Source of the DNA: a virus
Direction: 5' to 3' (one strand)
DNA: 46,827 nucleotides
IMG/VR virus record: IMGVR_UViG_3300045988_062651
Location: 1 to 46,827 of that record
Part shown: positions 278 to 46,827 of the stretch, piece after piece
Numbering within the stretch: position 1 is the first letter of the stretch
Layout: each line of letters opens with the position of its first letter
Notes under the pieces: generated by a model
Seen by the model: only the letters and a program-made list of their open reading frames with translations
Told to the model about the DNA's origin: nothing
Database searches by the model: none
Translations under genes and position numbers: made by a program

Positions 278-475
278 ATGAGCAGACACATTAAGTTAAA
301 TCAGGTCCAGGACCCAGAATATCCGGACCGGACCATTTCAGGCCTTCATTTGGAAGGTGGCAAAATCACTATTGAATTCCTCTCCGGGGAAGGTTCCGAT
401 ATGGTTCCTCTTGAGGGCCTGACCGCTGAACAGCTCAGGGCTTTGGTCCTGGCTATGGCCCAGACCTGCGAATAG
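278..475 (+). CDS. Hypothetical early protein (65 aa)
   Basis: ORF with an ATG start, preceded by the AACCTTAA leader motif and followed by an intrinsic terminator. Confidence 0.6.
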   Translation: MSRHIKLNQVQDPEYPDRTISGLHLEGGKITIEFLSGEGSDMVPLEGLTAEQLRALVLAMAQTCE

Positions 476-483
476 GACTTTTG

Positions 484-522
484 CCCTGGAGGGAACCCTC
501 CAAAACCCTCCGGGGTATTTTC
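484..522 (+). terminator. Intrinsic terminator after the first early gene
   Basis: The 10-bp stem CCCTGGAGGG/CCCTCCGGGG (one G-T pair) is followed by TATTTT. The internal CCCTCC allows an alternative pairing. Confidence 0.6.
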
Positions 523-637
523 CAGATTGCTCCCTTGCTTGGCAGAATGGGTGCGCAAACACTTAAAGTTTTATGCGCCATACCAAAAATTTTTAATAAA
601 CCAAGGGAACTAATTAAAGGTGCATAGGCACCAATAC

Positions 638-671
638 CCTTGCGGCCCTTGATTGCGGCCCCTTGGGTGCC
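638..671 (+). promoter_or_regulatory. GC-rich leader element, copy 1 (CCTTGCGGCCCTTGATTGCGGCCCCTTGGGTGCC)
   Basis: Near-duplicate of 1877-1908. The GGCC blocks can pair as a hairpin. It lies about 60 nt upstream of the ATG at 730. Confidence 0.45.
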
Positions 672-729
672 AAAAGTCCTGAGTAACTCAGGCAGTTATT
701 AATAAAAAACCTTAAAATTATTAAGTATT

Positions 730-1182
730 ATGGCTAAAAATCTTGCTAAGGTTGAGGACCTCCAGGAGGTTGTCACCACCACTACCAACGTTGAACTTTC
801 TAAGGCTGAAGTTGCCTCTGAAATCAGGAAACAGGCTGAGGAACTTATTGGGCATCGTGCCCGCATCGTGCCCGCAGGCACCATTGATTGGGTTGAGGGC
901 TGGGTAAAAACCACCCAGGCAGACCTCAGGCCTAAGACCCCATGCGTGCTGGTTGTTGTTGAGGGGGATGATGGTAAAATCTACCGCCGCACCTATGGCT
1001 CCAAACTTCTTGAGGTAGACTTGACCTCAGAGAAGAGAGAGGCCAAGTCAAGGGTACACGTACCTGAAACCCTCGAGGAGCTTGAGGAAGCCCTTAAGAA
1101 AGCCCAGGCCCAGCTTGAGAGTGCCACCAATAAGGTGAACCTCTTGACCAGAGCCCTCGAGGAAGCCAAGAAGAACCAGTAA
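730..1182 (+). CDS. Hypothetical early protein (150 aa), paralogue of 4109-5089, with a C-terminal coiled coil
   Basis: It shares the motif GHRARIVPAGTIDWVEGWV with GHRCKLVPVGTIEWEEGTV in 4109-5089. It has the conserved leader AACCTTAAAATTATTAAGTATTATG. Confidence 0.75.
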   Translation: MAKNLAKVEDLQEVVTTTTNVELSKAEVASEIRKQAEELIGHRARIVPAGTIDWVEGWVKTTQADLRPKTPCVLVVVEGDDGKIYRRTYGSKLLEVDLTSEKREAKSRVHVPETLEELEEALKKAQAQLESATNKVNLLTRALEEAKKNQ

Positions 1183-1185
1183 AAG

Positions 1186-1214
1186 AGAGGGGGGACTGGT
1201 TCCCCCTTCTTTTT
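1186..1214 (+). terminator. Intrinsic terminator
   Basis: Stem AGAGGGGGGA/TCCCCCTTCT, loop CTGGT, then TTTT. Confidence 0.7.
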
Positions 1215-1254
1215 GTCCTCCATAAAGAATAGAATTGTGCGGGAGCGATACCCG

Positions 1255-1515
1255 ATGGAGGACCCATTAAGTAATCTTATTAAAACAATGAAAGAGAAAG
1301 TATTTAATGCAATCCTTAGTATTGCGGTAGTAGGTCTTGGAGCTCTTATACTCCTTGCAGAAACAAGCCTCCTGATACACCATGGAGTAACACCTGAGAT
1401 GGCCCTTATAGGCAGTCTCTACACAGGGTCCCTTGGCTGGATAATCCTTGCCGCGGTCCTCACAACTACTGACTGGTTCTATGACCACGTAACTAGCAAA
1501 ATCATCAAGAAGTAA
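1255..1515 (+). CDS. Small membrane protein (86 aa from the ATG at 1255; the ORF track starts at a TTG at 1213)
   Basis: Two hydrophobic segments (AILSIAVVGLGALILL and GSLGWIILAAVL). The ATG at 1255 lies downstream of the terminator at 1186-1214. Confidence 0.6.
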   Translation: MEDPLSNLIKTMKEKVFNAILSIAVVGLGALILLAETSLLIHHGVTPEMALIGSLYTGSLGWIILAAVLTTTDWFYDHVTSKIIKK

Positions 1516-1538
1516 CCTTAAAATTATAAGCAAACATT

Positions 1539-1763
1539 ATGGAGAAGATTTTCAAACTTATCGCAGTTGTCGTCCTTAAGGTTGACAATGTGCTCTACAA
1601 AACTTTTGGACTTGTAAGTCCTTTTAGGAGACACAGCTGGGCCCTCAGTGGCAAGAGGCTCCAAAGAGACTTGGACCGCGAGCACGCCACGCGGGACTAT
1701 CTTAATTACCTCTATGGCACAAGTTACACCACTAAGCAAGCCCTTGCATTGCAAAAGGACTAA
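1539..1763 (+). CDS. Hypothetical early protein (74 aa)
   Basis: ORF with the leader AACCTTAAAATTATAAGCAAACATTATG. Confidence 0.55.
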   Translation: MEKIFKLIAVVVLKVDNVLYKTFGLVSPFRRHSWALSGKRLQRDLDREHATRDYLNYLYGTSYTTKQALALQKD

Positions 1764-1774
1764 GTGCTCCGAGA

Positions 1775-1813
1775 ACCCTAAGCCCTTATTCACAAATAAG
1801 TGCTTAGGGTTTG
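1775..1813 (+). terminator. Intrinsic terminator-like hairpin
   Basis: The 9-bp stem ACCCTAAGC/GCTTAGGGT is followed by TTGAT. Confidence 0.5.
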
Positions 1814-1836
1814 ATACAACTTATCTATATATTTAT

Positions 1837-1844
1837 TATATTTG
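1837..1844 (+). promoter_or_regulatory. -7 promoter element TATATTTG (early promoter 2)
   Basis: Exact TAnnTTTG match, 94 nt upstream of the ATG at 1938. Confidence 0.55.
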
Positions 1845-1876
1845 TATATAAGTTGAACGGGGGATAATCCCTATAT

Positions 1877-1908
1877 CCTTGGGCCCTTGAGTGCGGCCCT
1901 TGGGTACC
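1877..1908 (+). promoter_or_regulatory. GC-rich leader element, copy 2
   Basis: CCTTGGGCCCTTGAGTGCGGCCCTTGGGTACC, a near-duplicate of 638-671. Confidence 0.45.
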
Positions 1909-1937
1909 AAATAAAACCTTAAAATCATTAAAGTATT

Positions 1938-2324
1938 ATGACAAACAATTCCCTTTTTGCGGCGCTTTATCGTGGGTACTATGAAGCCGCTAATGACAAT
2001 TCAAGGGTTGCACTTTTGGAGTACTTTGTCCCGGTCATCAGCCGTTGGAATATCCAATGGGGCGATGGTACTCTGGACCCTTTCTCAAATCAGATAATCA
2101 AGTTTGTACATTCGAACGAGAAGCACTTCCTGAAGTACTTTGGAAAAGGCACAAAGCTTGTGTACGGAACTTATTCGAGGAACAATGGTGTCTACTTCAG
2201 TATTGCGGCTCTGGCCAACTTCAATTTTGACCTTCTCCCGAGCCCTGACTTTATTGTGGAGCGGTCCAATGGCCGCCAATACTACTTATATAGGCTGGAA
2301 GACTATGACACCCTAGAACCTTAA
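1938..2324 (+). CDS. Hypothetical early protein (128 aa)
   Basis: ORF with the conserved leader AACCTTAAAATCATTAAAGTATTATG. Confidence 0.7.
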   Translation: MTNNSLFAALYRGYYEAANDNSRVALLEYFVPVISRWNIQWGDGTLDPFSNQIIKFVHSNEKHFLKYFGKGTKLVYGTYSRNNGVYFSIAALANFNFDLLPSPDFIVERSNGRQYYLYRLEDYDTLEP

Positions 2325-2379
2325 TACCAAAATTATATAAAGTTGCACAAGGACTGATACAACATATAAATATAATTGC

Positions 2380-2387
2380 TATATTTG
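2380..2387 (+). promoter_or_regulatory. -7 promoter element TATATTTG (early promoter 3)
   Basis: Exact match, 22 nt upstream of the ATG at 2409. Confidence 0.55.
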
Positions 2388-2408
2388 TAGTAGTTAAATA
2401 GAAGCACA

Positions 2409-2591
2409 ATGAACCAATACGACAAACAATACTTCAAGGATGCGGTTCTTGGAACTGAGTCCAGACACACGGAGCACTGCGACGTGGAATATAACAAGGA
2501 CCTTGATGCGTATATGCTCTTCAAGAACGGCAAACTTGTCGGAGAGGCTAAGGTCCTGAACAACGAAGTATATATTACAAACCTTAAATAG
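2409..2591 (+). CDS. Hypothetical early protein (60 aa)
   Basis: ORF directly downstream of the promoter element at 2380. Confidence 0.55.
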   Translation: MNQYDKQYFKDAVLGTESRHTEHCDVEYNKDLDAYMLFKNGKLVGEAKVLNNEVYITNLK

Positions 2592-2599
2592 TCACTAAG

Positions 2600-2875
2600 A
2601 TGGAAAAGAAAACTGAAAAGCGCACCTTTAGCGCTATCGCTGCGGAGGTCATGAACCTCTGGAAAACAAAGTACTGAAAATATCTTCCTTGGTCCTTGAA
2701 GGGCGCTCTCCCTTATCTGGAAGCAATGCTTGAGTGCGACACCACCGACAAGGACGCGCGATATTACGCAGAGACCGTAGAAAGCGTGGTCATCTGCTTC
2801 CGGGCCAACATTAACAACTGGAGAGGCGCCGACGCCAAGCGCATCAAGGCGGAACTCAAAGAGATGCTCAAGTAA
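2600..2875 (+). CDS. Hypothetical early protein interrupted by an in-frame TGA at 2675-2677 (25 codons, TGA, 65 codons, TAA)
   Basis: Hand translation gives MEKKTEKRTFSAIAAEVMNLWKTKY*KYLPWSLKGALPYLEAMLECDTTDKDARYYAETVESVVICFRANINNWRGADAKRIKAELKEMLK. The leader AACCTTAAATAGTCACTAAG precedes the ATG at 2600. No other plus-strand ORF occupies this gene-sized slot. Confidence 0.5.
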
Positions 2876-2902
2876 AAAGTAATCTTAAAAACATTAAGTA
2901 AT

Positions 2903-3289
2903 ATGGAAAAAGCAAAAGAAATCGAGCTCTTACAGAGCCTCAAGGGTGACACTTATTTCGCTCGGCTTTTTGGCGACCAACAAATCGACGCCATGTGTGA
3001 GAACATTAAAAATGACTTCCCAATTGAACTTGGCTTGAATCTTTTTGAGGGTTCTTCTGTTGCTAAAGAGAATGCGGAACTGAGGAAACAACTTACTCGC
3101 CATGTAAACTGGGAAGAGTCTGTAGCAGAAGGCCTCCTCCTTAAAGCGAATGAACATATGGATGACTCGCTTGAGGGCCTCGCTGCGCGTCTTATTGGCT
3201 ATGAGAAATGTCTGGCTATCAAGCTCCACCTCGCGTTACCCCTTTCTGGAGAAGACCGTGACACTCTAGTTAAACTTTTAACAAAATAA
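2903..3289 (+). CDS. Hypothetical early protein (128 aa)
   Basis: ORF with the leader AATCTTAAAAACATTAAGTAATATG. Confidence 0.7.
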   Translation: MEKAKEIELLQSLKGDTYFARLFGDQQIDAMCENIKNDFPIELGLNLFEGSSVAKENAELRKQLTRHVNWEESVAEGLLLKANEHMDDSLEGLAARLIGYEKCLAIKLHLALPLSGEDRDTLVKLLTK

Positions 3290-3294
3290 GTATT

Positions 3295-3591
3295 ATGAAA
3301 AAGATTAGCGCAAAAAGTAAGCTCGGCCAACACTTTGTTGAGGCTTACATAAGAAGTACACGGCATACCCTTAAAGACGCCTATGTCAAACCAAGTAGCG
3401 CAAAACAGGCTGTCTTCAAACGTTGCCAGCGGCAATGCGAAGCGGAGAAGGGCGATGGCCTTAAGGTCATTAGCTTTAATTGTAACCAATTCACAGTTGC
3501 CTTTGAAGTGACTACAGCTTCTGGAGCTACCGAGCTCCGCGTAATAACCAAGCGTAATGACTATGTAATCCCTTTTGGAGACAAGATATGA
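3295..3591 (+). CDS. Hypothetical early protein (98 aa)
   Basis: ORF preceded by TAAGTATTATG. Confidence 0.65.
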   Translation: MKKISAKSKLGQHFVEAYIRSTRHTLKDAYVKPSSAKQAVFKRCQRQCEAEKGDGLKVISFNCNQFTVAFEVTTASGATELRVITKRNDYVIPFGDKI

Positions 3592-3914
3592 AAGCAAATG
3601 AACTAATGCTTGGCGACTGGGTGAAAGATAAATATAAACCCAAGCCTTATATGGTGGATAGTTGGAAGGACTTTAATAGTGCTGAAGATTTATCCCCTAT
3701 CCCGCTCACTTATGAAATCCTTAAAAAGAATGGATGGAAAGACACTGAATTTTGGTGCGAATATCAAGATGATAATATTTATATTCAGGCTTCTCTACCA
3801 TATATGCGAGGAAGAATTAACGGGATTGAGATTGAGCGCTTCCAATGCGAGTATATACACCAATACCAGCATTTACTTCGCTTGTGTGGACTTGAAAAAG
3901 AAATAAGTATATGA
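3588..3914 (+). CDS. Hypothetical early protein (108 aa)
   Basis: ORF whose start overlaps the upstream stop (ATGA), suggesting translational coupling. Confidence 0.65.
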   Translation: MKANELMLGDWVKDKYKPKPYMVDSWKDFNSAEDLSPIPLTYEILKKNGWKDTEFWCEYQDDNIYIQASLPYMRGRINGIEIERFQCEYIHQYQHLLRLCGLEKEISI

Positions 3915-4049
3915 AAGCAGTTCTTACCAAGCAATCAGGCATGAAGTCCAATACTTTCATTTTGGTAAAGATAATGAGGGAGCAAAAGCCCCTGAGAGCA
4001 AAATGAAAAATAACTTTATAAAAATAGCATAAAAGTCAAAAAAAGTTAT

Positions 4050-4057
4050 TATATTTG
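4050..4057 (+). promoter_or_regulatory. -7 promoter element TATATTTG (early promoter 4)
   Basis: Exact match, 52 nt upstream of the ATG at 4109. Confidence 0.55.
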
Positions 4058-4108
4058 TAGAAAGAAAAATTAAATTTTTTAACCTTAATTTTTAATCCTT
4101 AAAGTATT

Positions 4109-5089
4109 ATGAAACGTAATTTCAAAAAAATGTCCGACGAAGAGTTGGTTGCTCTTCAGGAAACCGCAGATGAACAGACACTTGCTGCTATCGAAGCTGA
4201 ACTTGAATCCCGTGCTACTGCAGCGGCCGAACAGGTCTCTGTAGAAGAGCAGACCGCAGACCCTTCTGAGGACGCTGAGGCCGAGACCGCCGATGGTGCT
4301 GAGCAGGACAAAGCCGCAGAGCTTGAGGAGCTTCTTGCTGAGTGCCAGAAGAATGTTGGTCACCGCTGCAAACTGGTCCCTGTTGGTACCATCGAGTGGG
4401 AAGAAGGTACGGTTGTCGGCTGTGTGAAAATCAAGCGTTCCAACACGGTTGCTTACGCAGTCAAGCTTGACAACGGTAAGCGTGTAGTGAAGAACTACAA
4501 GGCTCCTCTGTTCGAGATTCTCGATGAGGTTGTCGAGCGCGCCAAGGTTACTCGTCATGCTGGTTCACGCACCAAGGCTGAACTTTGGTCTGAGGAGCGT
4601 ATGACTGAAGAAGTTAACAAGTATATCCACAATGTTGGTCGTGCCATTGTCCTCAAGGGTGCTACTGAGGAAGAGAACGTCACTGGCCAGATTACAGGTA
4701 TCGTACCTGTTAAGCGTTCCAACTCAGTTCTCTATCGTGTAGCGGTTCCTGCTCCTACTGAGGAGGACCCTGAGGCTGTTGCCATCGTTCACAAGTCTGT
4801 TGCGAACATTGCTGCTTATGACATCATGGCTGCCACTGAGGAATCTGAGGCTTTCAACGCCAACTATATGGCCCGTCGCGAGAACATGGCCAACCGTACA
4901 CCTCTGACTGGCGCCGAGCTTGTTCTTGACCTCGAGCTTAAGCTTGAGAAAGCTAAGGAGGCCGTTAAGAAAGCTGAAGAGCGTGTCGCTACTCTGGAGA
5001 AAGCTATAGCTGAGAAGAAAGCTCAGCTTGAGGCTACCGCTGCAGAGCCTACCGCAGAAACTACTTCTGAAGAAGAGAACATGCTTTAA
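4109..5089 (+). CDS. Hypothetical early protein (326 aa): acidic N-terminus, two copies of the module shared with 730-1182, C-terminal coiled coil
   Basis: Motifs GHRCKLVPVGTIEWEEGTVVG and VGRAIVLKGATEEENVTGQITGIVPVKRSNSVLYRV. The N-terminal 70 aa are rich in E, D and A. It has the conserved leader. Confidence 0.8.
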   Translation: MKRNFKKMSDEELVALQETADEQTLAAIEAELESRATAAAEQVSVEEQTADPSEDAEAETADGAEQDKAAELEELLAECQKNVGHRCKLVPVGTIEWEEGTVVGCVKIKRSNTVAYAVKLDNGKRVVKNYKAPLFEILDEVVERAKVTRHAGSRTKAELWSEERMTEEVNKYIHNVGRAIVLKGATEEENVTGQITGIVPVKRSNSVLYRVAVPAPTEEDPEAVAIVHKSVANIAAYDIMAATEESEAFNANYMARRENMANRTPLTGAELVLDLELKLEKAKEAVKKAEERVATLEKAIAEKKAQLEATAAEPTAETTSEEENML

Positions 5090-5118
5090 TCAGTATGCAA
5101 ACGTCTAAACATAGGACA

Positions 5119-5149
5119 AGCCCTCGAGTACCCGCTCGGGGGCTTTTTG
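5119..5149 (+). terminator. Intrinsic terminator
   Basis: Stem AGCCCTCGAG/CTCGGGGGCT followed by TTTTTG. Confidence 0.7.
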
Positions 5150-5172
5150 TTTAATTATAAATCCTTAGAATT

Positions 5173-5385
5173 ATGCCATACAAAAGACCCTTATGGTACG
5201 TTGTAGACGACGGAGGCGTGTATAACGTGTTCTCCTCGGACGACTTCGATGAAGACGGACAGTATACGGTAAATCCGGAATACTCTCTCGACGACTTTGA
5301 TATTATCGCCAAATACACGACGGCGGACGCCGCTTGGAATGAAGCTGAGCGCCTGAATCAATTAAGTGAAAAAGACAGGTATTAG
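5173..5385 (+). CDS. Hypothetical acidic early protein (70 aa)
   Basis: ORF with the leader ATCCTTAGAATTATG. Confidence 0.6.
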   Translation: MPYKRPLWYVVDDGGVYNVFSSDDFDEDGQYTVNPEYSLDDFDIIAKYTTADAAWNEAERLNQLSEKDRY

Positions 5386-5387
5386 GC

Positions 5388-5519
5388 ATGAAAGCAAAAT
5401 CAAGGATAGGTTTTTTATTTGGTCCAGAATTGGCCAAAAATTTTTGGATAGTAAATTATATTCTGGATATTTTCTGGCTTGCCAGAAGAGCTGAAATATA
5501 TCTAATTTTTCAAATTTAG
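5388..5519 (+). CDS. Possible 43-aa ORF lying inside repeat element A
   Basis: ATG at 5388 and TAG at 5517. The peptide MKAKSRIGFLFGPELAKNFWIVNYILDIFWLARRAEIYLIFQI resembles a frame of element B at 34253-34347. Confidence 0.25.
   Translation: MKAKSRIGFLFGPELAKNFWIVNYILDIFWLARRAEIYLIFQI
5407..5502 (+). repeat. Dispersed ~95-nt repeat, element A (partner is element B at 34253-34347, opposite strand)
   Basis: Hand alignment of A against the reverse complement of B shows shared blocks CCAGAATTG, AAAAATTT, TGGATAGT, AATTATATT, GCCAGAAGAGC and AAATATATC. Confidence 0.7.
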
Positions 5520-5573
5520 AACTTATTCATCAGTCCATTTTCCTCATTTCGAAATTTACCCTTAAGATATAAT

Positions 5574-6110
5574 ATGTTTGAGACTTTTCAGTTATCTAAT
5601 GACGCTTTCTATTACCTCAAAAATGGAGAGGAACCGCTCGTTGATGAGGCGCTGGATGAAGCACTTGTAGTTGAGGCCCTATATCCAGACGGGTTTACAA
5701 TACTTGACTTCAAACCACTTGGTAATACGGGCTACATTGAAGCGCGAATAGGCCCTAAGATAGTAATGCCGGCCAAAGCTTTGCAGCCTGCCATTAAGCC
5801 TATAACTCAAAGGTGCCAAGAGCTTGGTTATAATGCTGAGACCGTAGAGCGTAACCGCAAAGAGTATGCTGACTCAGATGAAGTGCAAATGCTTTCAAAT
5901 GTATGCCGCTTAGAAATTGTTTGGCTTAATGCTGGGCGCACACAACTAAGGGTTTACTGGAACCGGCTTGACTTGGGCCAAAGAACAGTATTCGGTGAGT
6001 TTCCTGTTTGGTCAACGCCTAAAGGCCTTAAGTATTTTCAGGGAACAAATCCTAATGGCACATTTTACAGATTTTATTTGAAGCATTTTAATAAAGTAGT
6101 TAAATCATGA
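5574..6110 (+). CDS. Hypothetical protein (178 aa)
   Basis: Long ORF with the leader ACCCTTAAGATATAATATG. Confidence 0.7.
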   Translation: MFETFQLSNDAFYYLKNGEEPLVDEALDEALVVEALYPDGFTILDFKPLGNTGYIEARIGPKIVMPAKALQPAIKPITQRCQELGYNAETVERNRKEYADSDEVQMLSNVCRLEIVWLNAGRTQLRVYWNRLDLGQRTVFGEFPVWSTPKGLKYFQGTNPNGTFYRFYLKHFNKVVKS

Positions 6111-6544
6111 CACTTGCAGAACTTATTGAACAATGCGTACGAGTCGAAGGACAAGTGACCGCCGCGCACATTCCTATGGTCAATGCAGATGGAAGTCCCT
6201 TCGAAGTGGAAAATCTTAGCATTGTTACCCGAGAAGATGGTACATTATATGTGGCAGTCCAAGGTCCTGAGAGCCTTCAGCCCGGAACCTACGCAATTCC
6301 TGAAGATTGTACTTTCAAGTACGCTAATCGTCAGATTATTGTGGTTCCTAAAAAAGTCAAAGATACAAGCGTTTTACGGTGCGGTACTTGTAAGCACATC
6401 AAGACCGGAAACAAATGCTGTAAGGGCCAATACTGGGAAACACAGTATTGCGAACTTAAACCAAAAACTATTGGCGGTAAAGCCGAGTATTTTTATCATG
6501 TAAGTCCGAGCGCCAAAGCTTGTGATAAATACGAGGAAGCTTAG
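6107..6544 (+). CDS. Hypothetical Cys-rich protein (145 aa)
   Basis: ATGA overlap with the upstream gene. Contains the cysteine cluster CGTCKHIKTGNKCCKGQYWETQYC. Confidence 0.65.
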   Translation: MTLAELIEQCVRVEGQVTAAHIPMVNADGSPFEVENLSIVTREDGTLYVAVQGPESLQPGTYAIPEDCTFKYANRQIIVVPKKVKDTSVLRCGTCKHIKTGNKCCKGQYWETQYCELKPKTIGGKAEYFYHVSPSAKACDKYEEA

Positions 6545-6553
6545 CTCCGTCAA

Positions 6554-6605
6554 TATATAAAGTAAAACCTCCTGACAAGATTGCCAGGAGGTTTTACTTT
6601 ATATA
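6554..6605. terminator. Bidirectional terminator at the convergence of the early (+) and middle (-) transcription units
   Basis: Perfect 21-bp inverted repeat TATATAAAGTAAAACCTCCTG / CAGGAGGTTTTACTTTATATA with a 10-nt loop. Confidence 0.75.
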
Positions 6606-6732: not shown

Positions 6733-7446
6733 CTATTTTTCGACTCTAAAAACATAACCTTTACCATATACCGTTACTATCTTAACTTTAGGGTCCGCAG
6801 CAATGTATTTGCGTATTGCAGTCATATAGAAGTCCAGGCTACGTTTTGCAAACACATCAATCTGGTGCCACACAGCACTTAGTATTACTTGCGTCATAAG
6901 TAATTGATTTGGGCTGCTAAAGAGGTACGTCATAATGGAGAACTCCTTGTCCGTCAGTTCTATAGTCTTGTGCCCGTCAAAGAACGTGTGGTCCTCAGTA
7001 TTCAAGACCATATCGTGAATTACGTACTCTTTCTTGAATTGTAAAAAGCGAAGAGGCGCATGTTTTGTCCAGGTACGTAGGCGCCACACAAATTCTTCTG
7101 TATTATACGGTTTACGTACAAAGTCTGAAACACCGGCTTCATAAGCAGCAACGGCAGCAAGCGGGTCGTCGTTCTCAACACAAAGAATAATTGGAACGTT
7201 AGGATAATACTTTTGCATTGTGTGCACAAGCGTAAGGTCATTAGGCCTGTCGTACTTATGATAATAATCAAGTACTGCAACGTCAATATTATCTTTGGCA
7301 ATTTCGGATAGCGCGTTTTCCTCGTCTACAGCCCAAGCATTAAAGCATTGTTCCTGTAAGTATTTTACAAGAGTGTCCGCGCCATCATTTTGGAACACCA
7401 AGACACTATACTGCCCAAGGTGCTCAAGTATTGATTGTCTACTCAT
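6733..7446 (-). CDS. Orphan OmpR/PhoB-family response regulator (receiver plus winged-helix DNA-binding domain) with a degenerate receiver pocket
   Basis: Receiver: VLVFQND replaces the hhhhDD motif, VAVLDY retains the acceptor Asp, PIILCVE lacks the conserved Thr/Ser, and DFVRKPY retains the Lys. C-terminus: LTDKEFSIMTYL...VWHQ...RSLDFYMTAIRKYI...IVTVYGKGYVF matches the trans_reg_C pattern. Confidence 0.8.
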   Translation of the reverse strand: MSRQSILEHLGQYSVLVFQNDGADTLVKYLQEQCFNAWAVDEENALSEIAKDNIDVAVLDYYHKYDRPNDLTLVHTMQKYYPNVPIILCVENDDPLAAVAAYEAGVSDFVRKPYNTEEFVWRLRTWTKHAPLRFLQFKKEYVIHDMVLNTEDHTFFDGHKTIELTDKEFSIMTYLFSSPNQLLMTQVILSAVWHQIDVFAKRSLDFYMTAIRKYIAADPKVKIVTVYGKGYVFRVEK

Positions 7447-8245
7447 TTTTAGCTAAATTATAAAGTAATTCAAACCAACGAGGGTTGTACATAAGGAGGT
7501 CAAAATAAGTCTTCACGTTGTTTTTGATAATTCTTGTAGCAACTCCAAGCGCTTTAGCTTCTTGAGCGTTCTGGTATTTATAATACATATTAACCGCGTT
7601 ATCTACAAGATATATCATTTCAGGCCGATACTTGAGAAGTATATTTTGCTCTGTTCCTTGTCTAAAATAATAGGGCACATTTGGCGTAGCCCAAAAAAGT
7701 ATTCTATGCCCATTCATATCTTTGCCTCGTCCAGAACCGGCAGTGCGGCCAATATAAACAGTGTCATAAACAAATCCTGGGCATCTTTTAACAACCCAAG
7801 GATAGGTGTTATATAAGCGACGGATTGGAATAGGTATCAAAGAATTGAGCAATCGCTTGAGGCGCTTATTAGCTGAAGCCTGTGCGCGTTCTGCAATTGT
7901 AACTTGCTTTTCGGCTACAATACGAGTAAGCGCCTGTAAGTCATAATTTGGAATTTTGTCAGAGAGCTTAATAAGATTCTGGCTAACGGCAAGACGCTGA
8001 ATCTTGATTTTATAACGGGTATGCGCATCCTTGTCCTTTACTTTTCCGTATTCCTTTAATTTGGCAGTTACGTCAGAAGTGTCTGATGTGTCTTCCTCGG
8101 TAACGTCTACAAAATCAAGTGCCTCTTCTTTTACAATACTTTGTTCAATCTTTGCAACGTCTGTAGATAAAGTCTCGTCCTCCTGTTCGAGTTCAGCGAG
8201 CAGGAGGGCTAAGTCTTCAGTAGATAGCTTATTGAGGTCTGTCAT
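7439..8245 (-). CDS. Hypothetical protein (268 aa from the ATG at 8245; the ORF track extends to 8272)
   Basis: The ATG at 8245 overlaps the upstream stop (ATGA). The N-terminal half is acidic and coiled-coil. No family was recognised. Confidence 0.65.
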   Translation of the reverse strand: MTDLNKLSTEDLALLLAELEQEDETLSTDVAKIEQSIVKEEALDFVDVTEEDTSDTSDVTAKLKEYGKVKDKDAHTRYKIKIQRLAVSQNLIKLSDKIPNYDLQALTRIVAEKQVTIAERAQASANKRLKRLLNSLIPIPIRRLYNTYPWVVKRCPGFVYDTVYIGRTAGSGRGKDMNGHRILFWATPNVPYYFRQGTEQNILLKYRPEMIYLVDNAVNMYYKYQNAQEAKALGVATRIIKNNVKTYFDLLMYNPRWFELLYNLAKNE

Positions 8246-12054: not shown

Positions 12055-13467
12055 CTATTGAAAATTTTGTTTATATTTATCAAGCTTTGCTTTAAGGCTC
12101 TCCAGGAGCCCAGATTGTGTTCTATCTTTAGTTTTAAGAGCTTTTATAACTTCTTCATCTTCTGTTCCTTTAACAACTAAATGGTTTATAATAACGCCCT
12201 TCTGTTGTCCTTGTCTATAAAGTCTGGCGTTAAATTGCTGGTATAATTCGAGGCTCCAGGTAAGGCCAAACCAGACTATTATATTTCCTCCGGCTTGGAG
12301 GTTTAAGCCATGACCAGCAGAAGCAGGATGCGCAATAAGAATTTGTATTTTACCCTCATTCCACTCAGCTATGTCACGAGCAGTTTTAAGCTCTCTTACT
12401 TCGTAGTTCTTGAAATACTCTTTGATGCGGTCGCGGTCAGATTGAAAGGTCCAAGCTACAAGAACAGGCTGTCCATTTGCATCATCGATTATTTCTTTAA
12501 GTGCTTCGAGTTTTATGTCATGAATTTCATGCGCTTGTCTTGCTTCTGCCTCGTTATCATATATTGCGCCATTGGCAAATTGGAGAAGTTTATTAGACAA
12601 GCCCATTGCGTTAGCCGTTGTAATTGTGAGCGGCTTTCCGTCGGCGTCTACAGCATTTGTGAGCTCAAGCACTTTTTCTTTTTCAAACTCGTCATACTGG
12701 GCCTTAAGTGCAGAAGACATTTGTAACTCTACAAAGTTATCAATCTTGTCGGGCATTGTCAGATAATCCTTAGCAGACATACTTATACAAATATCTGAAA
12801 CTTTGCGACGTATTTCTTCTTCTGCGCCAGGTAACAATCCATACTTGTAAACTATAAATCCATCAGACACAAGTGGCTTAAAGTAGTTTTGACGAAAAGC
12901 TGTTATAGTCTTGCCTAAACGCGTACCGCGGTCCATAAGATAGATTTGTGGCCACAGGTCAATAAAACCATTTGGAGCTGGTGTACCGGTCAATCCAACA
13001 AATCTCATAAGACCTGGACGAATAGCGCGAAGAGCCTTAAATCTCTGTGCTTTATATGACTTGAAGCTACTTAACTCATCTGCTACAATCATGTCATAAG
13101 GTAGCTTCTGTCCGCCGAAATACAAGCACAACCAAGCAATGTTATCGCGTGATACAATATAAACATCAGCCGGTTTGTTTATAGCGGCTACTCTCTGCTT
13201 CGGCGTACCGATAATTTTAGAGAAGCGCAAATGCTTTAAGTGGTCCCACTTTTTAGCCTCTTCCTGCCATACAGTTTCTGCCACACGCTTAGGCGCAATT
13301 ACAAGAACTCTTTTAACTTCGCAGTAATCAAACATTAAGTCATTGATAGCGGTCAGAGTTATAACAGTCTTGCCGAGGCCCATATCAAGAAATAGACCGC
13401 AATACGGAACATTTATAATATGGTTCACGCAAATTTGCTGATAGTTATGTAAATCAGATTTGTTCAT
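12055..13467 (-). CDS. SNF2-family DNA helicase / ATPase
   Basis: Motif I DMGLGKT, motif II VADELSSFK, motif III LTGTPAPN, motif VI QQFNARLYRQGQ. Confidence 0.9.
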   Translation of the reverse strand: MNKSDLHNYQQICVNHIINVPYCGLFLDMGLGKTVITLTAINDLMFDYCEVKRVLVIAPKRVAETVWQEEAKKWDHLKHLRFSKIIGTPKQRVAAINKPADVYIVSRDNIAWLCLYFGGQKLPYDMIVADELSSFKSYKAQRFKALRAIRPGLMRFVGLTGTPAPNGFIDLWPQIYLMDRGTRLGKTITAFRQNYFKPLVSDGFIVYKYGLLPGAEEEIRRKVSDICISMSAKDYLTMPDKIDNFVELQMSSALKAQYDEFEKEKVLELTNAVDADGKPLTITTANAMGLSNKLLQFANGAIYDNEAEARQAHEIHDIKLEALKEIIDDANGQPVLVAWTFQSDRDRIKEYFKNYEVRELKTARDIAEWNEGKIQILIAHPASAGHGLNLQAGGNIIVWFGLTWSLELYQQFNARLYRQGQQKGVIINHLVVKGTEDEEVIKALKTKDRTQSGLLESLKAKLDKYKQNFQ

Positions 13468-18087: not shown

Positions 18088-18089
18088 AG

Positions 18090-18168
18090 TGCGCTCAACT
18101 AGATTCGAACTAGCATTGTCAGCAAGCGGTCAAGCAAGACTGAGGACTTACCATTAGTCTATGAGCGC
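18090..18168 (-). tRNA. tRNA-like element 1: canonical acceptor, D and T arms, but a 15-nt anticodon loop
   Basis: Minus strand: GCGCTCA TA GACT AATGGTA AGTC C TCAGT CTTGCTTGACCGCTT GCTGA CAAT GCTAG TTCGAAT CTAGT TGAGCGC A. The loop contains the direct duplication CTTGCT(T)GAC. The 3' end lies 2 nt before the polymerase ATG. Confidence 0.5.
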
Positions 18169-21082: not shown

Positions 21083-21491
21083 CTATAATATTGTTAATGA
21101 TGTTTACTAAGTCCTGAACGAGCAAGTCGCCATCTGCAACAACGTCATTGAACAATTCTTTGTCGTCGGCTGTAACGGTTAGCACGTGAGTGGCATAAAT
21201 ATACTTAGCCACGTAGATACCCCGCTTAATACAGAAGCTGTCCTGCTTTTCTGTAGCATCATGCCACAGGTCACAACCCGCTTCATATATAGCGGAAACG
21301 GACACGCCTACATACTGTGCGAGGGCTTCAAGCTGGTCTACTGAAACGTGGCCTTTTCCTTTAAGAATTCGGCGGAGCGCGAGGTCAGCATACTTGCTTG
21401 TAGGAAACATGACACTTGCTACGTCAGCCTGGTTCAGCTTGTAGTTTTTAAGCACGTTGTTCAAATAAAATAGTGATTGTTGTTCTTGCAT
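21063..21491 (-). CDS. XRE-type helix-turn-helix DNA-binding protein; first gene of the middle operon
   Basis: LNQADVASVMF...LRRILKGKGHVSVDQLEALAQYVGVSVSAIY has the HTH_XRE pattern. It lies directly downstream of control region 1. Confidence 0.6.
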   Translation of the reverse strand: MQEQQSLFYLNNVLKNYKLNQADVASVMFPTSKYADLALRRILKGKGHVSVDQLEALAQYVGVSVSAIYEAGCDLWHDATEKQDSFCIKRGIYVAKYIYATHVLTVTADDKELFNDVVADGDLLVQDLVNIINNIIDGTYSN

Positions 21492-21702
21492 TGTTCTGCC
21501 TCATTTATTTTCATATACGAATATAGCTGAAATTTTTCATATAAAAAAATAAAATTAAAAAATTTTTTCGTTTTGCATTTAAGGGCTTTTTCAGCTAATT
21601 ATTAAGGCGTAAAAAGCATACGTAGCTGAAAACAGGCAGGCCAAGCTTCCTAAACAATACGTTCGAGCTCTAAACAATCCTAAACAATACTTTGTTTAAC
21701 CC

Positions 21703-21727
21703 TAACTAATTGAAAATCAATCAGTTA
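21703..21727. promoter_or_regulatory. 25-bp palindromic operator, copy 2
   Basis: TAACTAATTGAAAATCAATCAGTTA. Confidence 0.6.
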
Positions 21728-21804
21728 GACCATCCTAAACAATAAAACAATAATTTCTATATATAGTATATATGAATTTTATAAAATCCGTAAAATCTAT
21801 ATAA

Positions 21805-21812
21805 CAAATCTA
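21805..21812 (-). promoter_or_regulatory. -7 promoter element TAGATTTG (class II), reading toward the middle operon
   Basis: The plus strand reads CAAATCTA. The extended minus-strand string TTAGATTTGTTA is shared with 29085 and 42488. Confidence 0.5.
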
Positions 21813-21871
21813 AATTACAGTAATGGTCCAATGTTTTTATATATTTTATTGTTTTATTGTTTAGACTGTCC

Positions 21872-21896
21872 TAATTTATTGAAAATCAATCAGTTA
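21872..21896. promoter_or_regulatory. 25-bp palindromic operator, copy 3
   Basis: TAATTTATTGAAAATCAATCAGTTA. Confidence 0.55.
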
Positions 21897-21995
21897 TGAT
21901 AAACAAAGTATTGTTTAGGATTGTTTGAACGGCCAAATTATTGTTTAGAAACCGCATAACATGGGAATCAGTTTGAGACCGAACAGCTTGCGCAA

Positions 21996-25158: not shown

Positions 25159-26388
25159 TTAACTATTTAAGTAGTCATCATTATAATCATTGTTGAAATC
25201 GCCTATAGACCGAATATAGCCGAGGCCAATTTTCTTTGCGACGGTCGCAGTCGTAAACTCAGCGTCTACTGAAGCAATATCTCCGTAGTCTTCCCATTCT
25301 GGTGAAAGCATGAACGAATCAACAGAATATCTTTGTCCCTTGTAGGTTATTACTGCATAGTCCGACAGCCTTATGAAGCGCATGACGTCTAGAAGATACT
25401 CCGAAGCCAAGAATGAAAAATGAAACGTTTTCTTTGATATTTGCTTGATAGGGAAAGTATAGCCGTCCCTTTCTTCGCTTTCTTCCTCGAACTCGTATTC
25501 TGGCTTAGCAATATCTGTCTGTAAATACAAGATATTTCTAAATTGTGTATTGTTTGCGTATTTGTAAACAATCGTTCCGGCGTCCATCACGAAATCTTCT
25601 ACGTCCCACCACTCGATTTTCAAATATGGTTCAATGTCGTTTACGACCGTGAACATTTCGGAATACCACGTTTGGGTTCCGTCGGAAATCGTGGCGTAAT
25701 ATTGGCCATTTGCAAATTGCGTGAACACGGGCGTTTGACCGCCGAACACGATTACATCATACCCAAGCGACGCAAACGGTTTAATGGCAATTCCGGCGTC
25801 CAGGATTGCTTGTGTAAAGTCGCCTACCAACTCGCCGCATCGTGTATAAATCTTGAAACTTTTTATCGTTGTTGGTACGTTATTCGCCTTATACACTTCC
25901 CCGTCATACTGCTCAAACTCGCTATTTGAGGTAAGCACCTTTATTTTTGTAGTACCTTTTGGCAATGTCCAAAAGCCAGAATACGTACCCATACTAACAG
26001 ATCGAGAAAACAGGACTTTATCCGAACTATCATAAGCAACATAGCATACCGAGTCTCCGACCTCCTCGCCTCCGTGAACATACGTTGGAATATTAGATAA
26101 ATACACCGCGTCTATCCCCGATACGTCATATACATTGACAAAACCTGAACTCACGTCCTGATACCAAGAACCATCGCTTGTCAGATAGCCCGTATCGCCG
26201 TCTGTCGATTCAAGGAGGTCACCTTTTGCAAGTTCTGTTCTTGGCGGGCGCATCACTTGAAAAGGAAGCATATAGCCAGACGGAACAAACAGCGGATATA
26301 CTTTGTCATACATCCACCATTTACGGGCATTCTGTCGCTCGATTGAATCGTAGAATGGTAACACAGATAAATTATTATTTGGTATCAT
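25159..26388 (-). CDS. Tail tip / baseplate-associated structural protein (409 aa)
   Basis: Assigned by position downstream of the tape measure and the 816-aa protein. No motif was recognised. Confidence 0.45.
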   Translation of the reverse strand: MIPNNNLSVLPFYDSIERQNARKWWMYDKVYPLFVPSGYMLPFQVMRPPRTELAKGDLLESTDGDTGYLTSDGSWYQDVSSGFVNVYDVSGIDAVYLSNIPTYVHGGEEVGDSVCYVAYDSSDKVLFSRSVSMGTYSGFWTLPKGTTKIKVLTSNSEFEQYDGEVYKANNVPTTIKSFKIYTRCGELVGDFTQAILDAGIAIKPFASLGYDVIVFGGQTPVFTQFANGQYYATISDGTQTWYSEMFTVVNDIEPYLKIEWWDVEDFVMDAGTIVYKYANNTQFRNILYLQTDIAKPEYEFEEESEERDGYTFPIKQISKKTFHFSFLASEYLLDVMRFIRLSDYAVITYKGQRYSVDSFMLSPEWEDYGDIASVDAEFTTATVAKKIGLGYIRSIGDFNNDYNDDYLNS

Positions 26389-45315: not shown

Positions 45316-46056
45316 TTAAAGCAAGTCCTCCGGGCTCACCGGCGGACGGCTGTTAGGGTCCGCGTAAAAGTAATAGCCCTGCTGTAGCCTTCCCGGGTTC
45401 ATTAGTCCTCGGCGGACATTGCGATAGTCTATCTGCAACTCGTGGGCTGTGTCGGCTATTGTGGCGAACACGCCGACGGCCTCACCATTATAGTCATACG
45501 CGTATACGCGCACAGATTGTCCGGCGCCAAGCCTTGCCGTTGTGACACGTCTCAGATTAAGCTCCTCCGGTGTCAGATAGTGGTTAGTCGTAACAATTGA
45601 GCCTTTGATAACCGCTGTATTACCCCAGCAACAGGCATGCACAGAATGAGCGCCTACACCGAGGTCCTTGGCGCACACGCCTTCTAAAGGATATAGCTCG
45701 ACGAGTCTGTCGGCGTCAAGATTATAGTAGCACCATGCGCCTTTGTGAAGGCGGCGAACTCCTTCTGTGCAGGTTGGCTCAGCAGCGAACTCTTCTTCCG
45801 TGTGTGGCGTCAAATGTACCTCGATTTGAGGCTTGGCCCAATTTTGAGTTATGGGTATACCGCAGAACGGTTCTTGTGCCAATACCTGGTACAAATCTTC
45901 GATAATGTTCTTACTGTAGTAGAAACGGTGTATAATTGTGTCGCCGTATATTAGCCAGTACTCTCGAGGAGCATTTAGCGGAGCTGGTTCCAGAGGTGGT
46001 ACCTCGTCAAAAAGAGTCACGAGACCTTTTACCTTAACAAGTAGGGATTGTTCCAT
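45316..46056 (-). CDS. Hypothetical protein, first gene of the late operon; the C-terminus resembles a NUMOD1/IENR1-type DNA-binding module
   Basis: VRVYAYDYNGEAVGVFATIADTAHELQIDYRNVRRGL...GYYF, matched to the motif from memory. Confidence 0.55.
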   Translation of the reverse strand: MEQSLLVKVKGLVTLFDEVPPLEPAPLNAPREYWLIYGDTIIHRFYYSKNIIEDLYQVLAQEPFCGIPITQNWAKPQIEVHLTPHTEEEFAAEPTCTEGVRRLHKGAWCYYNLDADRLVELYPLEGVCAKDLGVGAHSVHACCWGNTAVIKGSIVTTNHYLTPEELNLRRVTTARLGAGQSVRVYAYDYNGEAVGVFATIADTAHELQIDYRNVRRGLMNPGRLQQGYYFYADPNSRPPVSPEDLL

Positions 46057-46126: not shown

Positions 46127-46134
46127 CAAATATA
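46127..46134 (-). promoter_or_regulatory. -7 promoter element TATATTTG (class I string TATATTTGTA) for the late operon
   Basis: The plus strand reads CAAATATA. The element lies 71 nt upstream of the ATG at 46056. Confidence 0.5.
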
Positions 46135-46199
46135 GGCAATCTTGTGAGAAAATTGGCATTTTTTAGCGAATTTAACAGAAAATGGGGTCTTAAACAATA

Positions 46200-46224
46200 T
46201 AACTGACTGATTTCCAGCCAGTTA
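46200..46224. promoter_or_regulatory. 25-bp palindromic operator, copy 4
   Basis: TAACTGACTGATTTCCAGCCAGTTA. Confidence 0.55.
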
Positions 46225-46274
46225 GGCCTTTTTCTAAACAATCTTAAACAATCATAAACAATGATTGTTTGTCC

Positions 46275-46299
46275 TAACTGACTGATTTTCAATAAGTTA
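46275..46299. promoter_or_regulatory. 25-bp palindromic operator, copy 5 (the best palindrome)
   Basis: TAACTGACTGATTTTCAATAAGTTA. Confidence 0.6.
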
Positions 46300-46447
46300 G
46301 ACCTTCTTAAACAAAACAAACACAATTTCCTATATATAGATATATGGAAATATCAATTTTTATATAAAATTATTTAGTGCCATATATCTAAAAACAATTC
46401 TATATAATTATTTTATATATTTTATTGTTTTATTGTTTAAGAGGACC

Positions 46448-46472
46448 TAATTTCTTGATTTTCAATTAGTTA
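46448..46472. promoter_or_regulatory. 25-bp palindromic operator, copy 6
   Basis: TAATTTCTTGATTTTCAATTAGTTA. Confidence 0.55.
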
Positions 46473-46515
46473 CGGAAAACAATACTTTGTTTAAGATTGT
46501 TTAAGACCGTTTTTC

Positions 46516-46540
46516 TAAATAGCTGATTTTCAACCAGTTA
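46516..46540. promoter_or_regulatory. 25-bp palindromic operator, copy 7 (degenerate left half)
   Basis: TAAATAGCTGATTTTCAACCAGTTA. Confidence 0.45.
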
Positions 46541-46673
46541 CATATTTTTTATTGTTTAAGCGCGGTCCATTTTCCATTATTATTCGAGGGCCCTCCGTGT
46601 CAGCTACGAACTACGTTATAATAGATTTGAGGACCAGGCGGATATTTAGTGCCCTTTACGCAGTAGTTCCAAT

Positions 46674-46827
46674 GTTTTAGTGCCTATCTCGAATGGCTGT
46701 AAATTTTATTATGTATACGCAATATTTAGTGCCTATCTCGAATTACTGTAAATTTTATTATGTATACGTATTATTTAATGCCTATCTCGAATGATTGCAA
46801 ATTTTATTATGTATACGTGTCCTGATT
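46674..46827. repeat. Three tandem 49-bp repeats (iteron-like), running across the circular junction
   Basis: Units start at 46674, 46723 and 46772. The unit consensus is TATTTAGTGCCTATCTCGAATnnnTGnAAATTTTATTATGTATACG. The 11-mer TATTTAGTGCC also occurs at 46371 and 46643. Confidence 0.85.
46773..46827. repeat. Terminal overlap, second copy (identical to nt 1-55)
   Basis: 55/55 identity with the contig start. Confidence 0.95.

Follow-up and report, generated by a model that had tools for sequence, protein, structure and literature searches.

A putative kinase-less OmpR/PhoB-type regulator at a fixed locus of Bacteroidales siphoviruses

The stretch of DNA analysed here, referred to as the window, comprises positions 1 to 46,827 of the IMG/VR virus record IMGVR_UViG_3300045988_062651, and one of its genes, at 6733..7446 on the minus strand, raises the question of what a response regulator would do in a phage genome in which no kinase is found to phosphorylate it. 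The evidence assembled below makes it probable, short of high confidence, that the gene encodes a phage-borne, kinase-less atypical regulator of the OmpR/PhoB type, in which the receiver is a pseudo-receiver, and that it belongs to a phage-restricted family of siphoviruses of gut Bacteroidales, where it sits at a fixed locus and serves as a phosphorylation-independent accessory regulator.

The regulator and its receiver pocket

The gene and its parts are as follows.
6733..7446, minus strand: orphan OmpR/PhoB-type atypical response regulator, ATG start, 237 aa (open reading frame (ORF), Pfam and AlphaFold2 (AF2))
7066..7407, minus strand: pseudo-receiver domain, residues 14-127 (alignments to RegX3, PhoB, OmpR and CheY, with AF2 topology)
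6742..7029, minus strand: OmpR-type winged helix, residues 140-235 (Pfam and AF2 secondary structure)
Within 6742..7029, minus strand: recognition helix K201-I215 (KRSLDFYMTAIRKYI) and wing residues 221-235 (AF2 secondary structure)

The original prediction, made from the sequence alone, had described a receiver followed by an OmpR-type winged helix, and the profile search run as a check recovers both domains above their Pfam gathering scores: Response_reg (PF00072) at residues 28-122 (E 7.3e-9, 36.2 bits, cutoff 30.2) and Trans_reg_C (PF00486) at residues 160-233 (E 3.3e-16, 59.6 bits, cutoff 26.2). The peptide strings quoted for these domains (LTDKEF, VW, RSLDFYMTAIRKYI, VTVYGKGYVF, VAVLDY and RKPY) are all present in the protein. 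Matches in NCBIfam are confined to OmpR-family regulators, led by RprY (98.2 bits, cutoff 370), NblR (78.7, cutoff 300) and PhoB (74.9, cutoff 296); because these scores lie far under the equivalog cutoffs, the protein is not an orthologue of any named regulator. The best sequence matches in the PDB by phmmer are RegX3 (1e-15) and DrrD (1.6e-14). The structure prediction that had been proposed as a further check likewise returns a full-length OmpR/PhoB fold, since the AF2 model, built with 24 family sequences at a mean predicted local distance difference test score (pLDDT) of 84.6, contains a (beta-alpha)5 receiver and then a winged helix. Full-length Foldseek matches to this model include RpaA, KdpE, DrrD, PrrA, VanR and PhoP, as well as the atypical regulators HP1043, RitR and GlnR, and receiver-only fold matches in the PDB reach template modelling (TM) scores of 0.8-0.88. 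The same search against BFVD gave weak viral matches only, most of them restricted to the receiver.

The phospho-acceptor pocket was mapped by three agreeing alignments, namely a phmmer alignment to RegX3 and DrrD and two MAFFT alignments with PhoB, one of which also held OmpR and CheY; the AF2 strands (beta1 14-18, beta3 56-60, beta4 86-90 and beta5 108-111) fit this mapping. At the position of the canonical acidic pair (DD), Q19-N20 is found, followed by D21. The acceptor position is occupied by D60 (VAVLD), which is aligned with D53 of both RegX3 and PhoB, and the Lys/cis-Pro pair is present as K112 and P113, with F109 as the aromatic switch residue. V90, with C89 before it, fills the Thr/Ser position, and the next residue (T+1) is the bulky E91 in place of a small one. 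The corresponding codons are Q19 caa at 7390-7392, N20 aat at 7387-7389, D60 gat at 7267-7269, V90 gtt at 7177-7179 and K112 aaa at 7111-7113. The pocket is thus degenerate in the way that had been claimed, with Q-N-D for D-D, C-V at the Thr/Ser position, and Asp and Lys kept.

A pseudo-receiver has been defined as a receiver that lacks any one of the five active-site residues DD, D, T and K; within that site, the second acidic residue (DD2) is in direct contact with the metal, and 74% of true receivers carry Ala or Gly at T+1 (PMC12632262). Both the DD2 acid and the small T+1 residue are lost in the window regulator. Because the first acidic residue (DD1), DD2 and T are all absent, the protein is a pseudo-receiver, or atypical, response regulator; it falls outside the aspartate-less class because D60 is present.

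The same prediction held that no histidine kinase is encoded anywhere in the genome. The Pfam scan supports this for ORFs of at least 200 aa, in which no HisKA or HATPase domain is found, and for the early ORFs, in which no Pfam domain of any kind was detected; smaller ORFs were scanned in part. The neighbours of the regulator gene are an upstream gene, here called p277, and convergent early genes, so that the cognate kinase of a two-component system is missing from its surroundings.

The gene family, its locus and the selection acting on it

The surroundings of the gene were compared across 80 related IMG/VR loci gathered via the SNF2 helicase, the identity of which separates two tiers: a window-like clade A at 93-98% and a much larger clade B at ~66%. 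Most clade-B loci carry a regulator of ~27% identity in the same position after a p277 homologue (~50 IMG/VR contigs), and on every contig carrying it the window-type protein lies directly after p277, at the end of the replication operon. The five pocket residues Q19, N20, D60, V90 and K112 do not vary among the clade-A sequences read (19/19), so that DD2 is Asn in each of them. The pocket in clade B begins with Q-D-E, has ...CIL(S/G)HY... around the acceptor, and carries Ser in place of Thr and Arg in place of Lys; these syntenic homologues are therefore aspartate-less receivers. The family is marked by a Gln in place of the first acidic residue, giving 'YQ' or 'FQ' behind beta-1; this Gln is nearly invariant across the family alignment and invariant in 126 aligned family proteins.

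In searches of wider scope this family is common in phage-sized metagenomic contigs and nearly missing from cellular genomes. A word-indexed search returned seven clusters only (56-97% identity), and an exhaustive search of cluster representatives added one cluster of 50% identity and fragments, followed by none above 30%. The next matches (P0009, P0012-P0015 and P0018) have an intact acidic pair in 0/6, with 'YQ' after beta-1 common to P0009 and P0012-P0015, and their longest contigs measure 1-57 kb (P0012 52 kb, P0013 57 kb). With a family profile, 519 clusters were found at E<=1e-10; in each of the best 120 of these the acceptor is Gly, Lys is replaced by Arg and Thr by Ser, and of these 120 none is named, all come from Logan and ENA, and the longest contigs are 45-52 kb. 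A scan of 185,579 species genomes yielded three family members, each on a contig of a metagenome-assembled genome (MAG) directly after a p277 homologue; one of them (L102) has Ala at the acceptor and another has Q-N with the Asp kept. The same scan gave two canonical Saprospiraceae regulators (L104 and L105) with a KRSLDVF helix. The family is therefore phage-restricted, because the best 120 of its clusters reach phage-size contigs and so few members appear among the species genomes. It probably descends from a Bacteroidota OmpR-type regulator; as read from the alignments, the acceptor Asp is lost in clade B and in L102 with the gene otherwise intact. A recent capture of a host regulator was considered and rejected, the closest cellular proteins being no more than 30% identical.

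Among catalogued phages, megablast of 7 kb around the regulator found no match in INPHARED, and the protein search of that collection found distant matches only (<=27% identity), many of them in records that look bacterial by size or annotation. No tblastn match to the regulator was obtained in six BF486P2-group genomes isolated on B. fragilis. At three further loci (L040, L053 and L063, that is, IMGVR_UViG_3300045988_159919, _163540 and 3300029465_000004) the fixed site holds no regulator: in L063 the p277 homologue closes the operon and is succeeded immediately by convergent genes, and in L040 other small genes come after the p277 homologue. None is found either in L063 together with L096, an extension of the L063 contig, over contig positions 4186-34330 of 50.9 kb. 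Judged from these absences, the regulator gene is dispensable in sister phages.

Where the gene is present, it is closely maintained. Pairwise Nei-Gojobori ratios of nonsynonymous to synonymous substitution rates (dN/dS) within clade A are 0.02-0.08 for the receiver and 0.00-0.05 for the winged helix, values that are approximate, as dS is near saturation; by this measure both domains are under strong purifying selection. A decaying pseudogene was rejected on the same ratios (0.02-0.08) and on a frame that is intact in hundreds of contigs. In the DNA-binding domain W193, R202, S203, D205, R212 and Y231 are invariant family-wide, and the KRSLD core of the recognition helix, R212 and the wing G-Y vary little or not at all between members. 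In the receiver the beta5-alpha5 segment (P113, Y114, N115, E117, E118 and L119) is among the most conserved parts, with P113 and N115 invariant and E117 nearly so.

This record bears directly on whether the receiver is still phosphorylated. The original prediction had left two options, a phosphorylation-independent regulator or one that taps host kinases, and of these the first is strongly favoured by the Gly, Ser or Ala at the clade-B acceptor and the Asn at DD2 throughout the clade-A sequences. Under the second, D60 and K112 would form a genuine phospho-acceptor site charged by host kinases or acetyl phosphate, which would couple phage transcription to host signalling. The retention of D60, K112, P113 and F109 in 18-19/19 clade-A sequences, the strong purifying selection on the receiver and the rank of the Bacteroides RprY model as the best in NCBIfam all speak for this option; however, the metal-ligand positions Q19 and N20 are both non-acidic, Val stands at the Thr/Ser position, and Glu occupies T+1, where Ala or Gly normally leaves the site accessible. 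Moreover, a protein <=30% identical to any cellular regulator is not what would be expected of a newly acquired host regulator able to pair with a host kinase, and syntenic members without the Asp are still conserved. Phosphorylation by host kinases or acetyl phosphate is accordingly very improbable for this protein, and since the Asp-less orthologues are equally conserved, the shared function of the family cannot depend on Asp phosphorylation.

The upstream partner invites a different explanation.
7439..8245, minus strand: p277, 268 aa from ATG; the ORF from TTG reaches 8272

The stop of p277 overlaps the regulator ATG by 8 nt, and the p277-regulator order is kept in L005-L008 and at ~50 IMG/VR loci. 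The regulator might act mainly through protein contacts, as a heterodimer with a host OmpR-family regulator through the alpha4-beta5-alpha5 face, by occupying host kinases, or in a complex with p277. Consistent with this are the conservation of the beta5-alpha5 segment, the overlap with p277, which the regulator gene always follows, and the documented heterodimers of atypical regulators, such as BldM-WhiI (PMC4125116). Nevertheless, the winged helix is even more constrained than the receiver, with KRSLD, R212 and the wing invariant, which argues for retained DNA binding; p277 also occurs in phages without the regulator, BF486P2 among them, and has no recognisable fold. A mode of action mainly by protein contacts is hence quite unlikely. 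For p277 itself no Pfam or PHROG match was found, and its AF2 model (helical, pLDDT 74) has no fold match in the PDB (best E 0.16); as a kinase substitute or co-regulator it was a dead end, there being no domain or fold match to build on.

Genome setting and the repeat arrays

The following features describe the genome around the regulator gene.
1-55 = 46773-46827: exact terminal repeat of 55 bp (sequence identity)
288-6544, plus strand: early block
21491 to 6733, minus strand: replication ('middle') operon
46056 to 21996, minus strand: late operon
6554-6605: inverted repeat of 25 nt, with 96% complementarity, where the early and middle operons converge (repeat search)
45316-46056, minus strand: first late gene, encoding a NUMOD1 protein of 246 aa (Pfam NUMOD1 DNA-binding motif)
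206, 1837, 2380 and 4050, plus strand, and 46127-46134, minus strand: TATATTTG boxes before early ORFs and the first late gene
21651..21947: dyad-symmetric TAAACAAT array upstream of the replication operon (enrichment, sequence and conservation)
46191..46558: second TAAACAAT dyad array, upstream of the late operon (enrichment, sequence and a counterpart of the L063 type)
Window 21600-21990 and 46150-46600; L040 1300-1700; L063 1600-2050; L096 4350-4800; L058 1600-1900: dyad module of ~300 bp

The window is a complete phage genome of ~46.77 kb in a circular assembly, as the comparison of its ends indicates, because bases 1-55 are identical to 46773-46827. Its annotated products include a terminase, a portal, a DNA polymerase, a primase-helicase, an SNF2 helicase, an exonuclease, a tail fibre-like protein and a virion structural protein that is likely the major capsid protein. 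The closest cultured relatives are B. fragilis siphoviruses of the BF486P2 / BF503P2 group (portal identity 62%), and B40-8, PDS1 and Croceibacter and Flavobacterium phages are more distant. The replication operon converges on the plus-strand early genes and has the regulator gene as its last, as had been read from the sequence, after which the hairpin at 6554-6605 probably closes the operon as a bidirectional terminator.

Two observations elsewhere in the genome are recorded for completeness. ARAGORN reports a tRNA-like element with an undetermined anticodon ('tRNA-???') at 18089-18168 on the minus strand, directly downstream of the DNA polymerase gene. Three tandem repeats of ~57 bp (...tttagtgcctatctcgaat..gtaaattttattatgtatacg) occupy 46640-46827 and run into 1-55; they separate the late control region from the early operon and may have a packaging or regulatory role.

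TATATTTG, which matches the -7 element of Bacteroidota sigma-A (TAnnTTTG), occurs 8 times against 2.8 expected, and its copy at 46127-46134 lies ~70 nt before the first late gene (start 46056). The replication operon has only an imperfect TATATTCG beside the ATG at 21491, and the composite Bacteroidota promoter pattern TTTG-N18-22-TANNTTTG is not enriched (3 against 1.5 expected). From the placement of the TATATTTG boxes, transcription of the operons seems to start from promoters of the host type, and these a regulator of this sort would modulate.

Whether the binding sites of the regulator lie in the same control regions is a separate matter. TAAACAAT occurs 16 times against 2.98 expected, and 14/16 copies fall in 21651-21947 and 46191-46558. 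In each array the plus-strand copies lie to the left and the minus-strand copies to the right, and between them are a hairpin centred on TGAAAATCA and an AT-rich centre. The claim that the arrays are phased at exactly 10 bp in both control regions stands in part: the enrichment and the outer triplets, direct repeats at 10 bp in the clade of the window, agree with it, but the inner doublets are spaced by 9 bp. At the wider scale, each genome has two copies of a dyad module of ~300 bp, one in front of the replication operon and one in front of the late operon; the module consists of outward arrays of (T/G)AAACAA(T/A), the TGAAAATCA hairpin and a 'TATATA' centre; it is kept across clades A, B and C, with or without the regulator. 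Clusters of AAACAA(T/A), with 6-12 copies per 350 bp against a maximum of 5 in shuffled sequence, occur in the same place in 44/50 regulator-positive loci; four of the six cluster-negative loci (L017, L024, L041 and L084) begin too near the helicase to include this place, and the other two (L051 and L081) are less clear. The clusters are also present in 3/3 loci without a regulator at the fixed site, and the L063-type phage has arrays in both control regions, the late one being read in L096.

These arrays had been proposed as the target of the regulator, so that by binding 10-bp-phased TAAACAAT repeats at 21651-21947 and 46191-46558 it would control the middle and late operons. Several points fit such a pairing, for the arrays are real and strongly enriched, their outer triplets have OmpR-type geometry, they lie upstream of operon starts, one of them with a TATATTTG box, and among the ORFs scanned the regulator is the only protein resembling a transcription factor that Pfam recognises besides the NUMOD1 protein. 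The cultured BF486P2, which has neither the regulator nor the arrays, also fits the idea, but is a single lineage. Against the pairing, the whole module of array, hairpin and AT-rich centre is found in L040, L053 and L063, where the fixed site lacks the regulator, and arrays are equally present in clade B, where the regulator is ~27% identical and has a different recognition helix. At most specificity positions the clade-A helix has other residues than the clade-B helix (SLDFYMTAIRKY versus SLDVHVCVLRNM), although both clades have one and the same repeat core; outside the clade of the window, in clades B and C, the phasing is 9 bp and each half-array also has an inverted copy. The simpler binder would be a factor that all these phages share or one supplied by the host. 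Because the arrays are shared with regulator-less phages and with a clade of different helix, the proposed pair of regulator and site is unsupported and has to be regarded as unlikely. Taken together, the evidence makes the arrays an ancestral module of the phage group, with a control or origin-like role, to which a factor shared by all its members binds; to judge from its layout, the dyad module resembles a bidirectional origin or a shared upstream activating or repressing module.

The NUMOD1 protein was considered as the common binder and set aside: its homologues were found only in clade-A phages (L003 and L004), with none in the clade-B or C loci L009, L096, L099 and L100, and the early ORFs carry no Pfam domain that would offer another candidate. 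B40-8 and PDS1 were tried as regulator-less comparators and proved uninformative on the arrays, since only the structural module is shared and the replication and control regions differ. In BF486P2 (L009), the control regions at 2300-2400 and 25930-26000 share an element of ~70 bp (cctataatatagg...gtttctaaggaaaatagtgaaaac) with a different motif, from which duplicated control modules would be a general trait of the group. As a separate observation, the clade-B locus L058 holds 16 copies of a ~24-bp repeat (core AATGCCACAGT) at 13030-13430, in its replication region; this repeat is not in the window.

Proposed function, known relatives and significance

On the reading preferred here, that of a phosphorylation-independent accessory regulator, the protein would be made together with the replication genes, given the overlap of its start with the p277 stop, and would be active without Asp phosphorylation. 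By analogy with HP1043 and ChxR it is a probable constitutive dimer through the alpha4-beta5-alpha5 face; the residues D108, E118, R122 and R124 align with the dimer-interface residues D101, E111, R115 and K117 of PhoB. The conserved winged helix would bind DNA, and transcription would be modulated in the middle-to-late phase. The regulator would thus act as an accessory fine-tuner, or on the host, and not as a core temporal switch; an accessory role is the more likely because related phages with the same three-operon plan lack the regulator, the cultured lytic phages of the BF486P2 group being the clearest case. It is possible, with low probability, that the lineage has gone further and is fully uncoupled from phosphotransfer, with a pseudo-receiver that senses some signal other than a phosphoryl group, for instance a metabolite, p277, a kinase or a regulator of the host.

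Several points weigh against the accessory, phosphorylation-independent reading. D60 and K112 are invariant within the window's own clade, and D60 may retain residual phosphoryl chemistry or a structural role. The kinase scan covers only ORFs of at least 200 aa and the early ORFs. The basic specificity residues R200 and R201 of the PhoB recognition helix are Thr and Ala in the window regulator, so that DNA binding could be weak or need a partner. Lastly, the absence of the gene in L040, L053 and L063 was checked at the syntenic site, and in L063 over 30/51 kb.

Among characterised proteins, the closest likeness is to HP1043 (HsrA, Helicobacter pylori, PDB 2hqr), an orphan with a full-length receiver and winged helix and a degenerate pocket that acts without phosphorylation, and which was found here both by sequence (E 2.8e-9) and by fold (Foldseek rank 26). 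However, HP1043 is cellular, essential and ~20% identical, whereas the window regulator keeps the acceptor Asp, is phage-encoded and is dispensable. ChxR (Chlamydia), GlnR (actinomycetes) and NblR (cyanobacteria) are likewise phosphorylation-independent OmpR/PhoB-type regulators without a cognate kinase; ChxR is homodimeric and recognises direct repeats (reference 60 in PMC12632262), GlnR is among the fold matches of the window regulator, and NblR is its second-best NCBIfam model, although at 78.7 bits against a cutoff of 300 the window regulator is no member of that family. All three differ from it in being chromosomal, in governing cellular regulons and in having other pocket substitutions. 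RitR (Streptococcus; PDB 5u8k and 5u8m), also among the fold matches, and CmrT (C. difficile) combine an OmpR-type output with a non-phosphorylatable receiver, a class that fits the sister clade exactly (acceptor Gly, Ser or Ala) but not the window regulator, which keeps the Asp. RitR is moreover controlled by a redox-active Cys, for which the phage family has no family-wide equivalent, C89 being found in clade A only.

The canonical Bacteroides regulators RprY and PhoB supply the best curated model (RprY, 98.2 bits) and a Bacteroidetes PhoB match of 72 bits; their cutoffs of 370 and 270 bits are far above these scores, and they differ in having an intact DD-D-T-K pocket and a cognate kinase. 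Canonical Bacteroidota regulators (L104 and L105) share the KRSLDVF recognition-helix motif with the phage family, of which they are likely distant ancestors. In another setting, CtrA, an OmpR-family regulator, governs genes of Alphaproteobacteria phages through sites in phage promoters (PMC9437464); there it was the host's canonical CtrA, phosphorylated in vitro, with which binding and regulation were tested (PMC9437464), whereas the one described here is phage-encoded and has a dead pocket.

The earlier suggestion that response regulators are not a described feature of such phages holds for the literature, in which no paper was found on response regulators encoded by Bacteroidota phages, nor any relevant one on response regulators of phages at large or for BF486P2. 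It does not hold for databases. The exact protein is named 'DNA-binding response OmpR family regulator' by one source, where its 90% cluster has 364 members, and it matches phrog_731 (PHROGs v4, 'unknown function') over its full length (E 2e-27; residues 25-234 align with positions 16-225 of the 227 in the profile), so that response-regulator-like phage proteins have already been clustered. The subfamily with Gln at DD1, a locus after p277 and a distribution in Bacteroidales siphoviruses is not delineated there. What is new is an uncharacterised phage-specific family of atypical OmpR-type regulators; the general kind is known, and there is no sign of a new mechanism.

Pseudo-receiver regulators are common and their on/off switching is called 'a mystery' in a 2025 review that never mentions phages (PMC12632262), and one more atypical OmpR-type regulator is in itself an incremental addition. 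Hundreds of variants at a fixed locus of gut Bacteroidales phages that are themselves abundant, with or without the Asp, together with sister phages that lack the gene, nonetheless form a convenient comparative system. In the scanned ORFs only the regulator and the NUMOD1 protein have a DNA-binding domain that can be recognised, and in a mostly 'hypothetical' genome this makes the regulator a handle on temporal or host-directed regulation in a phage group that is poorly studied. If the lineage is indeed fully uncoupled from phosphotransfer and its receiver senses another input, Asp-keeping and Asp-less orthologues at one locus would amount to a natural experiment on pseudo-receiver switching, and a virulent Bacteroidales phage could use such a regulator to time its late transcription or to reprogramme an OmpR-type regulon of its host.

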